DNA of 61,635 bases from a virus (lineage: Duplodnaviria > Heunggongvirae > Uroviricota > Caudoviricetes). The notes beneath the pieces were generated by a model. The model was given only the letters and a program-made list of their open reading frames with translations, did no database searches and was not told the origin of the DNA. Location: the IMG/VR virus record IMGVR_UViG_3300033049_000033, positions 64,001 through 125,635 of that record. The stretch is one strand, 5' to 3'. Positions 27,603-30,550 of the stretch are shown piece after piece; positions within the stretch are counted from its first letter, which is position 1; every line of letters begins with the position of its first letter. The position numbers and the translations under genes are program-made.

Positions 27603-27651
27603 AACGTTACAGAAACTTGTATTTCTCGATAATTATACGTATCTTTGTTTA

Positions 27652-28341
27652 ATGCTAGAAATAAAAGAGACTTTAATACGTAAAGATGTCCCCCTTACTG
27701 TATCAGTAGAGAAGGACGAATTTATAGAAGCGAGTGAGAAAGCTTTTGATTGTGCTTTCAATGGTACATCGGAGTTCTATCCTTGGGAGCTTCCTGAGTC
27801 ATTACCATCCGAATTCTCTCTTGGAGTCATTGTGGGTGGCTCTGGTTCTGGAAAGTCTACAATGCTTAAAGAGTTTGGAAAAGAAGAAGTACCAAAATGG
27901 GATATTAATAAAGCGATAGTATCACATTTTGAATCTCCAGATGAAGCAATAAATAAACTTACAGCCGTAGGTTTGAATACGGTACCTTCTTGGTACAAAC
28001 CATATCAATCATTATCAAATGGGGAGAAGTTCAGGGCTGACCTTGCCCGTAAACTAAAAGACGGTGCAGTTATCGATGAGTTCACTAGTGTTGTGGATAG
28101 AAACGTAGCTAAGGCCGCAAGTATGGCTTTGGCCAGATATGTAAAAAATAATAACCTTAAAAATGTGGTAATATCAACGTGCCACCATGATATAGTCGAC
28201 TGGCTTGAACCTGAATGGGTTATAAATACTGATATGGGTCATTTGTATGACGGTTTTTTTTTGTCCGACCAGAAATCAATATCGAAGTATATAAGGCAGA
28301 CCGCAGTATCTGGGGAATGTTTAAAGACCATCACTATTTAA
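27652..28341 (+). CDS. ABC-type ATPase (N-terminal part of an ATPase-GNAT fusion)
   Basis: Walker A GGSGSGKST, signature LSNGEKFR, Walker B VIDEFTS. Confidence 0.9.
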   Translation: MLEIKETLIRKDVPLTVSVEKDEFIEASEKAFDCAFNGTSEFYPWELPESLPSEFSLGVIVGGSGSGKSTMLKEFGKEEVPKWDINKAIVSHFESPDEAINKLTAVGLNTVPSWYKPYQSLSNGEKFRADLARKLKDGAVIDEFTSVVDRNVAKAASMALARYVKNNNLKNVVISTCHHDIVDWLEPEWVINTDMGHLYDGFFLSDQKSISKYIRQTAVSGECLKTITI

Positions 28342-28733
28342 GCGGAGATTTAGCCACAGCATCAAGATGTTACGTTGGTATAATGAATGGTGAGGTAGTT
28401 GCCTTTAGTGCCAGTATGACAATGCCAAATGGGTACATTAAAAATGCTTGGAGGGGTCACAGAACGGTTGTATTACCAGATTATCAAGGAATGGGTATCG
28501 GGATGAGATTCTCTAATGCCATGGGTGAAATTCATTTAGCCGAGGGGCATAGATACTTCTCACGGACGGCACATCCTAAGATGATTTACTATCGTGAACA
28601 TTCCCCGTTATGGCGACCCACAAGTAAGAATATGAAACTTAGAAAAGATATTACACATAATAATATTTTCAATAATCATTATGCTGACAATAAACGTATT
28701 TGTGGTAGTCACGAATATATGGGTGAGTCATAA
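28254..28733 (+). CDS. GNAT acetyltransferase domain (-1 frame continuation of the ATPase)
   Basis: The -1 frame is open from the T9 run: FFFVRPEINIEVY...WGMFKDHHYL...RTVVLPDYQGMGIG (acetyl-CoA motif A). Confidence 0.8.
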   Translation, partial: FFFVRPEINIEVYKADRSIWGMFKDHHYLSGDLATASRCYVGIMNGEVVAFSASMTMPNGYIKNAWRGHRTVVLPDYQGMGIGMRFSNAMGEIHLAEGHRYFSRTAHPKMIYYREHSPLWRPTSKNMKLRKDITHNNIFNNHYADNKRICGSHEYMGES

Positions 28734-29594
28734 CGACTCTATAAGTTTATTATCAATATCCTCATCGTATTTTATTCTTATTAATTTTATCCCCATATTC
28801 TCACAATAATTTGTTTTTATATTATCGTTGTGTAATGTCTGCATGTGTCCAGCTATACCACCAAAACGCTTTACTGGTTTATAATGTTGTATTCCATCAT
28901 ACTCAATACAGATATTAAGCTCTGGTAAATAAAAATCAAATGGTAGTGGTAACTCATTTCTACAGTCGTTAAATCTATATTGTGATATAAAATTAACCTC
29001 CTCATTACGTAAATGTTGTTTTATTTGTTTCTCACCTTTAGACTCGCCACATATATTACACCCATGACCTTTCTTATGGTTTTTAGGTGTCTGCACGAAT
29101 TTACCATGTTCTGGGCACACAATAATAACTTTAGTAACGTTATTAGTATAGGACACTAAAGAATAATCGTATTTGTCTCCGTGAACCTTTTTAGATTTTC
29201 CTATAAATTCACTTACGGTATCTTTAAGTTTATTAGACGTCCTTTTTTTACCACATCGATAACATCCTTTACCAATTAAATGTTTGTTCGGTGTTTGATG
29301 GAATTGTCCGTGTTTGGAACAAACTATATTAACCTCAATATTACTACGCATATATTTAACTAACGAATAATCGTATTTATCCCCATGCACCTGTATAGCC
29401 TTCTGAATAAAACTATCAGTATTACTGGTTTTTGTTCTTACCCTATTTAACTTTGCGCAGTCTGGGCACCCTTTTCCGTATAAGTGATTATATATCATTT
29501 GTTCGAACTCGCCATGCTCTGAACAAATAATTGTAACTTTATCTTTAGTGGATAGAAATTCATATTTAGAATAATCGTATTTATCCCCATGCAC
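28728..29594 (-). mobile_element. freestanding homing endonuclease (Zn-ribbon repeats + Vsr/DUF559-like PD-(D/E)xK domain)
   Basis: Three HGDKYDYS...CxxHGxF...GxGCxxC repeats; LPFDFYLPELNICIEYDGIQHY; late motif at 29617-29624. Confidence 0.8.
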
Positions 29595-29643
29595 CTAAAC
29601 GAATTTTGTTTTCTTAATAAATATACGTATCTTTGTAAAACGA

Positions 29644-29808
29644 CATCCTAAGATGGGGTTTTACCGAGAGAACTCCAAATTATGGAGGGCAACTAGTAAG
29701 AATAGGAAGCTACGAAAAGATATTACACATAATAACATATTTAACAACCATTACGCTGATAACAAACGAATTTGTTTCAGTCACGAATATATAGGATATG
29801 ACAGCTAA
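29644..29808 (+). repeat. diverged second copy of the GNAT 3' end (vs 28572-28733)
   Basis: HPKMGFYRENSKLWRATSKNRKLRKDITHNNIFNNHYADNKRICFSHEYIGYDS vs HPKMIYYREHSPLWRPTSKNMKLRKDITHNNIFNNHYADNKRICGSHEYMGES. Confidence 0.9.
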
Positions 29809-30550
29809 ACAGACTATATTTGGACTCGTTTTACTATTCTTAATAGGTGGAGCACAATTCTATCAGAATATTAGGAAAGATAATAATATCAAGGAGATAA
29901 AAGAAATGTTGGAAACACATATAGAGGCTTCTAAGGTAGAAATTAAACTTCCTGATGGGTTTACCTATGTTTATGACCGATTTGCCATCTACAACGCTAA
30001 AATCGATACTCAGACAGTTATTACCTACCTTTCGGTAGTAGATAGTTTCGGGTTGCGAGAAGATAGTACCCATTTTGACTGGTTTATAGGTCAAATACTT
30101 TACGAGAGTGGCGCTAGACAGCGAAAGGCTGATGGTAGTATTCTTAGAGGTACTTCTGGTGAGGTAGGCATAGCACAGATTATGCCTTCAACTGCATTGG
30201 GAGTGTTATCTCAGATTAAAGACCCTAATATCTTATTGAGGTTGGGTGTTCACGATTTCTCATTTGCTAATAATAAATCAATTAAAAAGGTAAATAAAAT
30301 TAAACTAACCATTGAATGGTTAAGTGACATTAATAATAACCTGACATTGTGGGGATATATTATGCGAGGTAAAATGGAACGTAATGGGCTATTAAAAGGA
30401 TTGGTAGCGTACAATGCTGGTACTGGTGGAATGATGAAATTCATCAGTCAATTTCGTAAGCCTGAAAAGCATAAATATATTAAAGGGATTAGGGATACGC
30501 TACGTTATATAGCCAATAAAGGTTTAGTGCCCTCTTTGGAAAGCGTGTAA
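29798..30550 (+). CDS. lytic transglycosylase (SLT) with N-terminal membrane anchor
   Basis: LYESG (catalytic Glu), GIAQIMPSTA, AYNAG. Confidence 0.85.
   Translation: MTAKQTIFGLVLLFLIGGAQFYQNIRKDNNIKEIKEMLETHIEASKVEIKLPDGFTYVYDRFAIYNAKIDTQTVITYLSVVDSFGLREDSTHFDWFIGQILYESGARQRKADGSILRGTSGEVGIAQIMPSTALGVLSQIKDPNILLRLGVHDFSFANNKSIKKVNKIKLTIEWLSDINNNLTLWGYIMRGKMERNGLLKGLVAYNAGTGGMMKFISQFRKPEKHKYIKGIRDTLRYIANKGLVPSLESV

Follow-up and report, generated by a model that had tools for sequence, protein, structure and literature searches.

At the yeast aldolase gene FBA1, WHO elements replace the 3' end of the gene by the donor's resistant one and push the old end downstream; the stranded fragment has been proposed to act as a right-hand homology arm, and allele-specific cleavage was shown for WHO6 (Coughlan et al. 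2020, PMC7282813). A related arrangement is known from fungal mitochondrial mORFs, which were reported in atp6 of Allomyces macrogynus and in atp6, atp9, cox2 and nad3 of Glomus sp. (Beaudet et al. 2013, PMC3630166). Among phage-borne nucleases, the Vsr-like homing endonucleases of the EDxHD family include I-Bth0305I and the phage Hef-type enzymes (Taylor et al. 2011, PMC3239194; Dassa et al. 2009, PMC2677866). Here we analyse a comparable locus in a stretch of 61,635 nucleotides (nt) from a tailed marine phage (positions 64,001 to 125,635 of IMG/VR record IMGVR_UViG_3300033049_000033; hereafter the window), in which the 3' end of a GNAT acetyltransferase gene is present twice, at 28572-28733 and at 29644-29808, on either side of an antisense endonuclease gene. 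We regard it as highly probable that this is a homing element carrying a replacement GNAT end together with an endonuclease, and that the resident gene end was left behind as an orphan.

As in WHO elements, the endonuclease gene of the window has a full-length target gene on one side and a stranded 3' fragment on the other, and the GNAT locus likewise combines discordant histories of the 5' and 3' parts of the gene with what appear to be sensitive and resistant allele classes. The WHO protein is of the intein-derived LAGLIDADG-zinc-finger type and acts on a nuclear chromosome in meiosis, whereas the phage enzyme is a Vsr-like nuclease with Zn-ribbon repeats whose setting would be a phage genome in co-infection. 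Unlike in WHO, the nuclease gene here is antisense, overlaps the replacement stop codon and has a likely phage promoter of its own, to which the window phage adds a putative outward-facing promoter for the next gene. The mORFs similarly consist of a foreign C-terminal segment and an endonuclease open reading frame (ORF) inserted with the native C-terminus downstream, and their two copies are, as here, far more diverged from each other; however, their nucleases are of the LAGLIDADG or GIY-YIG type, usually oriented like the host gene and often in frame with it, they reside in organelle genomes, and neither an allele-class signature nor a nested series, both found here, was described for them (PMC3630166). 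The free-standing endonucleases of T4-like phages (seg, mob) resemble the element as proposed here in spreading during mixed infection by double-strand-break repair with co-conversion of flanking markers; some of them carry promoters for displaced downstream genes, and some lie inside genes, such as mobE in Aeh1 nrdA and mobA in T4 gene 39/60 (Edgell et al. 2010, PMC2988022). They differ in being located between genes or in splitting a gene into two working pieces, and none is described with a duplicate replacement end and an orphan (PMC2988022). A search of the full-text literature found no phage report of the replacement-end and stranded-end layout. By analogy, the mechanism at the GNAT locus would equal that of the yeast WHO/FBA1 and fungal mitochondrial mORF elements.

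The duplication of the gene end is real and far beyond chance. From an identical 13-mer, ACATCCTAAGATG (at 28571 and 29643), the alignment of the copies is gap-free as far as the last few codons, with 118/156 nt (76%) and 43/51 amino acids (aa; 84%) identical (BLASTP E 9e-32). A preliminary description had given the repeated part as the last ~54 codons; only 51 of these align well, and 3-4 diverged codons follow at the end. It had also singled out a 20-aa core, LRKDITHNNIFNNHYADNKR, as identical in protein but rich in synonymous changes, and the codon table confirms 11 such differences, although the identical block is in fact 23 aa long (KLRK...NKRIC) and contains 12 synonymous and no replacement changes. 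The upstream copy belongs to the functional GNAT ORF (28317-28733, plus strand; 138 aa in the ORF list), of which codons 80-135 (28553-28721, with the duplicated part starting at 28572) form a putatively mobile replacement end of the 'I...CGS' allele class. The GNAT ORF thereby appears to be chimeric, its 5' part being resident and its 3' part mobile. The stop codon of the free-standing homing endonuclease ORF (28728-29594, minus strand; 288 aa in the ORF list, identified by Pfam, PHROG and fold matches) overlaps the GNAT stop region tail to tail, and a cassette spacer (29595-29642), bearing promoter-like boxes on both strands, separates the nuclease from the second copy. This second copy, the putative orphaned resident end (29644-29808, plus strand), extends from codon 86 to the stop and belongs to the 'G...CFSH' class, as recognised from its GNFH signature. 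Its frame is intact, being open over 29599-29808 with an in-frame ATG at 29653, and its stop (29806-29808) does overlap, as previously noted, the start at 29798 of the gene for an SLT-domain lytic transglycosylase (29798-30550, plus strand; Pfam SLT), by 11 nt. In the nuclease-free relative L001 the GNAT gene directly abuts or overlaps the SLT gene with the same geometry; in the window, the insertion puts 1.07 kb between the SLT gene and its former operon partner.

An in-place tandem duplication of the gene end, followed by local divergence and by the later landing of a nuclease between the copies through chance or illegitimate recombination, would likewise be expected to give direct repeats around an insert, and both copies do keep an open frame. 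The 12 synonymous and zero replacement changes in the 23-codon core, however, indicate that the copies diverged under selection as working ends and thus in different genomes. Moreover, each copy represents a different one of two allele classes found segregating over about 110 genomes, and identical boundaries are seen again in unrelated backbones. The history is also contradicted by the L061/L059 and L034/L021 loci described below, the L061 orphan being as close to L059 as the backbone is, with a functional end that is foreign. We therefore consider local duplication exceedingly unlikely.

Scans of viral and metagenome contigs yielded 152 related loci (72 + 80; about 112 distinct), numbered here with the prefix L, whose full-length GNAT relatives measure 134-138 aa. 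The metagenome scan, of which the best 80 of 169 matches were kept, revealed neither a relative closer than L001 (= L073) nor, apart from L097, a new intact element, and a DNA search of a phage collection returned distant nuclease homologues only and no relative of the locus. The pairing of the GNAT gene with an upstream P-loop ATPase gene is conserved across the relatives, and the downstream content is variable. An endonuclease lies behind GNAT in the window, L005/L007, L013, L016, L034 (twice), L061 and L097, the last of these loci ending at the contig end. The nuclease is antisense in every element, with an overlap of 6-79 nt between its 3' end and the functional GNAT stop, and the ORF is intact with conserved putative catalytic residues in seven elements. 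A conserved spacer of about 40 nt with a ATAAATAT box lies between the nuclease start and the second GNAT end, whose first codon is codon 86 in the window, L005, L061 and L034b (one of the two elements of L034). The arrangement of an endonuclease between a full-length GNAT gene and a downstream 3' fragment is thus seen in the window, L005, L034 and L061, and the orphans of two further elements are decayed: that of L013 has an internal deletion, and that of L016 retains only about 17 nt. Furthermore, an I-class end in L090 precedes a nuclease remnant of just the 35 C-terminal residues, 97% identical to the L034b nuclease.

On the tree of ATPase and GNAT-5' sequences, the presence of the nuclease requires six changes, and monophyly of the nuclease-bearing genomes is rejected in the approximately unbiased (AU) test (p-AU 1e-33). 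The distribution thus corresponds to a patchy presence at one fixed site among related genomes, and the nested clusters and decay of old copies appear as expected from repeated homing.

The polarity of the insertion is clearest in two pairs of relatives. L061, with the nuclease, and L059, without it, are sisters on the ATPase and GNAT-5' tree (support 99), with backbones 92-93% identical at the nt level. The L061 orphan matches the L059 gene end at 89.5% nt and 98% aa, and the homology runs past the stop into the downstream flank. In contrast, the functional tail of L061 is only 67% (nt) and 61% (aa) identical to L059, with the switch at codon 84/85. The respective differences are 50/153 in the functional tail and 16/153 in the orphan (p 3e-6), which indicates that the orphan is resident and that the functional end arrived with the nuclease. 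Similarly, the native copy in mORFs matches a close relative with synonymous changes only, as in Glomus atp6 with 91% nt and 100% aa. In the second pair, the functional gene of L034 is native relative to L021 up to about codon 50; a first stranded piece begins at codon 53, with native codons 53-85 (90-97%) followed by foreign sequence, and a second stranded piece starts at codon 86. This pattern indicates that a first element came to lie at site 85/86 and that another, inserting at site 52/53, displaced it afterwards. L034 thus holds two nucleases and three tails, with the newest element nearest the gene, just as repeated homing of WHO elements gave nested clusters with the newest nearest the gene.

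In the window itself, the comparison with L001, its closest nuclease-free relative, reveals a mosaic. Identity is 71-82% over 28373-28552, rises to 93-100% over 28553 (codon 80)-28721, and is about 71-77% elsewhere; the differences amount to 40/180 upstream (78% identity) and 6/169 in the mobile end (96%; Fisher p 1e-7). This jump indicates that an upstream-type end was recently transferred in at least one of the two lineages, and the left edge of the high-identity segment coincides with the left edge of the element. The L001 gene end is 96% identical (nt) to the window's upstream copy and 75% to the orphan, but beyond a shared AGTCACGAATATAT the L001 sequence agrees with the last codons of the orphan and with the SLT junction. 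Thus, L001 looks like a recombination product between the direct repeats, from which the nuclease was deleted, or like a conversion without nuclease. The nuclease remnant of L090 provides independent support for nuclease losses of this kind. The window and L001 are also 98-100% identical over 28238-28372 of the window, and L001 has an ATPase ORF (1495-1818) that lacks residues ~61-180 including the P-loop region and is reduced to a 107-aa remnant, with an intact GNAT gene.

The L001 comparison gives some weight to a reverse polarity, in which the upstream I-class end would be resident and an endonuclease with a foreign G-class end (29644-29792), the orphan as cargo, would have inserted at about 28721: the closest nuclease-free relative has an upstream-type end (96% nt), and the window-L001 homology stops exactly at 28721 and resumes at about 29793. 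We nevertheless judge this very improbable. The L061/L059 and L034/L021 pairs point unambiguously in the opposite direction, there is a physical overlap of the nuclease ORF with the upstream end in every element, the contrast between that end (96% to L001) and its flanks (78%) marks it as a recently moved piece, and the nuclease-free members of the window's backbone clade are, L008 excepted, G-class. The preliminary description had expected the gene end of endonuclease-free relatives to match the copy at 29644, and had held that a match to the upstream copy would speak against homing. The expectation holds for L059, which matches the L061 orphan; the closest relative, L001, literally shows the opposite, but L001 is itself a mosaic with a mobile tail, so the homing model stands. 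The view that the downstream copy is the ancestral end is upheld directly by L061/L059 and L034/L021, and indirectly for the window by the L001 mosaic and the G-class clade members; the same two pairs, together with the class linkage considered next, support a homing cassette composed of a replacement end and an endonuclease.

The GNAT tails fall into two allele classes set by four linked positions, tail residues 5, 20, 45 and 47, which correspond to codons 90, 105, 130 and 132. Among 111 tail copies tallied, 58 are G-N-F-H and 12 G-N-F-Y, 23 are I-H-G-F, to which variants are added, and the I/V..G classes comprise about 33. I5 and G45 occur in 7/7 nuclease-linked functional tails, and G-N-F-H in 4/4 intact orphans; CFSH is also still legible in one of the two decayed orphans, that of L013. 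The class-defining difference nearest to the insertion site is at codon 90, ATG-ATT against ATG-GGG. In the backbone clade of the window, nuclease-free members with G-class ends are L002/3, L004, L006, L011, L012, L014/25, L018, L036/37 and L052, L008 being the sole exception. The replacement end had been called recoded, and its synonymous differences are indeed many; they are, however, what ordinary divergence between donor and recipient lineages would leave rather than a special design, and the classes are defined by the four linked amino acids.

Class changes also allow another explanation, namely ordinary homologous recombination between co-infecting phages, with the nuclease as a passenger or relic at the boundary that does not cut GNAT. 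Phage nuclease genes are known at boundaries of genetic exchange (PMC10448857), at least 13 changes of tail class are needed on the backbone tree as compared with six in nuclease presence, L008 and L014 differ in class without a nuclease, and the nuclease start is lost in the window record. Plain recombination would, however, replace a gene end and not duplicate it. Every stranded end begins at codon 86 (or 53) and immediately follows a conserved spacer; the ends linked to a nuclease all belong to one class, and the orphans all belong to the other; the nuclease ORFs are intact in the seven elements; and L090 demonstrates that nuclease-free class-I ends can derive from elements. On balance, this explanation strikes us as very improbable, and a homing element with a replacement end remains the reading that we follow below.

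Several observations weigh against that reading. No nuclease-free close relative of the window phage with a resident G-type end was found among the loci, and the polarity in the window is deduced from the mosaic pattern and from analogy with L061 and L034. The functional tail of the window is the intermediate I-N-G-H, which is common to L001, and not pure I-H-G-F. Outside the four signature codons, tails form no class-specific clades: the tree of 141 non-signature tail columns is poorly resolved, and co-travel of nuclease and tail is not visible in it, although it does place the L061 orphan with L059 (support 99) and the window functional tail with L001 (97). In the pairwise table, tails are more alike than backbones only in the subgroup of L005, L013, L016 and L034b, and between L005 and L061 the nucleases are 80% similar and the tails 66%. 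L008 and L014/L025 (6256-6408) have backbones 97-99% identical (nt) and opposite tails (I-N-G-H and G-N-F-H) that are 78% identical; neither has a nuclease, and their downstream genes are rearranged, which suggests, at the level of these sequences, that class can change without a nuclease. In L021/L023 (6429-6509) the order is reversed, a G-class functional end preceding an I-class fragment (NHYADNKRLCGSFEFIG) with no nuclease, and this arrangement is unexplained by the simple model. L041 (6418-6510) has a 30-aa antisense relic of a nuclease C-terminus behind a G-class functional end, identified by a weak match (E 3e-4). With regard to the protein, the E-values of the fold matches given below are weak, the Protein Data Bank (PDB) provides no sequence match, and the nuclease in the window record is without an ATG and an N-terminal helix.

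The endonuclease consists of two or three Zn-ribbon (treble-clef) repeats (Pfam DUF4379/DUF723) and a C-terminal Vsr-like nuclease domain. It matches PHROGs 559, 681, 9084 and 7140, which are phage endonuclease families, and weakly Pfam DUF559; at the DNA level, it matches genes annotated as 'VSR homing endonuclease' in staphylococcal phages. In a Foldseek search with an AlphaFold2 (AF2) model built from the seven orthologues (predicted local distance difference test score, pLDDT, 75.5), ranks 1-3 and 7 were occupied by 3r3p (the I-Bth0305I catalytic domain), 1cw0 and 1vsr (Vsr), with probabilities of 0.99-1.00, template modelling (TM) scores by target of 0.46-0.61 and E-values of 0.035-0.15. 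PDB sequence searches with the nuclease and with a seven-sequence profile gave no useful match, and none to 3R3P. Residues E188, D220, H237 and D257 are invariant in the seven orthologues, position 233 varies (D/H/Q/N), and in an alignment with its six same-locus orthologues the window nuclease keeps every conserved core residue. The D-to-H spacing of 17 is that of D196-H213 in I-Bth0305I (PMC3239194). The model thus fits a Vsr-type (EDxHD-like) enzyme with a provisional mapping of the catalytic residues. As in the EDxHD family, the C-terminal domain has a Vsr-like fold with invariant acidic and His residues, the gene is phage-borne, and free-standing members exist; I-Bth0305I, in contrast, is intron-encoded and has NUMOD/HTH modules. 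Such N-terminal modules are absent from the endonuclease, which has Zn-ribbon repeats in their place, so that it is related to the EDxHD family by its catalytic domain only and differs in DNA-binding architecture. A search of the 125-kb record revealed no second nuclease copy.

In the window record, the nuclease ORF begins with a GTG that immediately follows a TAG stop. In Logan contigs from X1 (the probable source run; depth 20) and from a second run, X2, however, position 29597 is C, not A, and 25 additional bases follow 29608. Together these differences abolish the TAG stop and restore an ATG-started N-terminus (MEKYLTKFVE-VHGDKYDYS), with an extension of 13 residues that ends in a leader helix (MEKYLTKFVE...) and resembles the N-terminus of the L034a nuclease. 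The 25-nt indel is flanked by short TTTGT repeats, and the plus-strand promoter is present in both versions. The window record is thus a variant or assembly difference without the normal nuclease start, the rest of the ORF being intact. No joint skipping the nuclease occurs in contigs of three runs, of which X2 and X3 cover the region only in fragments.

Under the homing reading, the element would be composed of a copy of the final ~53 codons that serves as replacement and belongs to an allele class which presumably escapes cutting; of a free-standing endonuclease gene of the Vsr type (EDxHD-like), which lies on the opposite strand and at its 3' end overlaps the stop codon of the replacement; and of a ~45-nt spacer with the nuclease's putative own promoter. 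During mixed infection, the nuclease would cut nuclease-free G-class GNAT genes near codon 86. The break would be repaired from the element-bearing genome, with GNAT codons 1-85 as the partner of the left end and the orphan fragment of the donor as that of the right end, whereby the replacement end and the nuclease would be copied in and the recipient's own end pushed downstream as a new orphan. The GNAT protein would stay full length, the old target would be split, and the new end, differing at the class-defining positions, would be resistant to re-cutting. In the window phage, a host-type promoter in the spacer faces the orphan and the SLT gene and probably restores SLT transcription.

This last element of the spacer merits separate consideration. 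The preliminary description had taken the box at 29628 as a promoter brought by the cassette for the downstream gene. The window phage has a promoter consensus of the Bacteroidota type, TTTG-N19-20-(cg)TATCTTTG(ta), a motif enriched upstream of ORFs; its sites precede the ATPase gene (27640), a gene with leucine-rich repeats (LRR; 25812) and at least 10 other genes (e.g., 33750 and 12355), more than 12 genes in all, often only 4 nt from the ATG. On the plus strand of the spacer, a -33 TTTG at 29605-29608 and a -7 TATCTTTG at 29628-29635 are separated by 19 nt, and TTTG-N19-cgTATCTTTGta at 29605-29637 is a full match to this consensus. The transcript predicted from it would start at ~29640, within the first orphan bases. 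The box thus agrees fully with the phage's own promoters, but it is specific to this element: no 29628-type box exists in the other six spacers, so that the putative promoter appears to be a local feature outside the conserved cassette. In L005, L034 and L061 the next gene lies on the other strand, and L013 has a promoter match of its own before SLT. TAnnTTTG was also considered as a conserved cassette feature and was rejected, AAAAAGT standing at that place in the other six spacers.

The minus strand of the spacer carries, upstream of the nuclease, the box ATATTTAT (29624-29617), which reads ATAAATAT on the plus strand and is conserved in all seven elements. Since ATATTTAT is a motif enriched 4-25 nt before many starts in the window phage, it is likely the nuclease promoter, with a transcript start predicted near 29612. 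A reading of the spacer box as a rightward T4-type late promoter (TATAAATA) was rejected, as that motif is not enriched before genes and its reverse, ATATTTAT, is. A sigma-70 scan of the cassette gave fewer promoter-like matches than shuffles did, and a consensus scan found no terminator-like site inside the cassette. In the window, ATATTTAT and TATCTTTG stand repeatedly back to back as divergent pairs (minus/plus: 20462/20486, 23996/24019 and 29624/29628), and ATATTTAT may mark a second temporal class of genes.

If homing elements of this kind are correctly recognised here, the replacement of a gene end with stranding of the old one operates also in bacteriophages, with a different nuclease family (Vsr-like), and the relatives represent a natural life-cycle series comprising a fresh insertion, re-invasion with nesting, decay of the orphan, loss of the nuclease and resistant footprints. 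Cassettes of this type could then be annotated where phage genomes show stray fragments of gene ends and antisense 'hypothetical' ORFs, a mosaic 3' end in a phage gene could be recognised as a homing footprint as opposed to ordinary recombination, and the allele-class pair with its four linked residues would be a ready substrate set for the specificity of an uncharacterised Zn-ribbon/Vsr endonuclease. A more far-reaching scenario, which we find conceivable but rather doubtful, is a layered gene-drive arms race at the GNAT locus of large marine Bacteroidota phages. The site-86 nuclease would maintain the sensitive G-N-F-H and resistant I-H-G-F classes; the L034a lineage, cutting at site 52/53 inside the acetyl-CoA motif, would have evolved to invade resistant genes; and the orphan would be an obligatory right homology arm, co-opted here, with a newly evolved promoter, as a leader ORF for SLT transcription and translational coupling.

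The upstream context of the element is formed by the P-loop ATPase ORF of the same operon (27652-28341, plus strand), which extends past the GNAT start and is preceded by a TATCTTTG promoter of its own at 27640. The GNAT protein matches Pfam Acetyltransf_7/1, with scores that fall below the curated cut-offs, and positions 217-351 of phrog_11143; this family spans both ORFs, its N-terminal half corresponding to the ATPase and its C-terminal half to GNAT. In all relatives, the two ORFs overlap in different frames behind a T-run (28246-28320 in the window). In L009 (450-1526) and L010 (4454-5530), the ATPase gene contains an in-frame intein with a LAGLIDADG block, placed in Walker A (GASG|C...HN|SGKST) within a 589-aa ORF, indicating that a second kind of selfish element targets the same operon. 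Finally, L056/L057 (6458-8663) contain a 2.2-kb insert with ORFs of 378 and 310 aa between a functional GNAT end and a 22-codon GNAT-end remnant; these ORFs showed no match to the window endonuclease, family libraries not having been searched, and the insert may represent other cargo using the same displacement layout.

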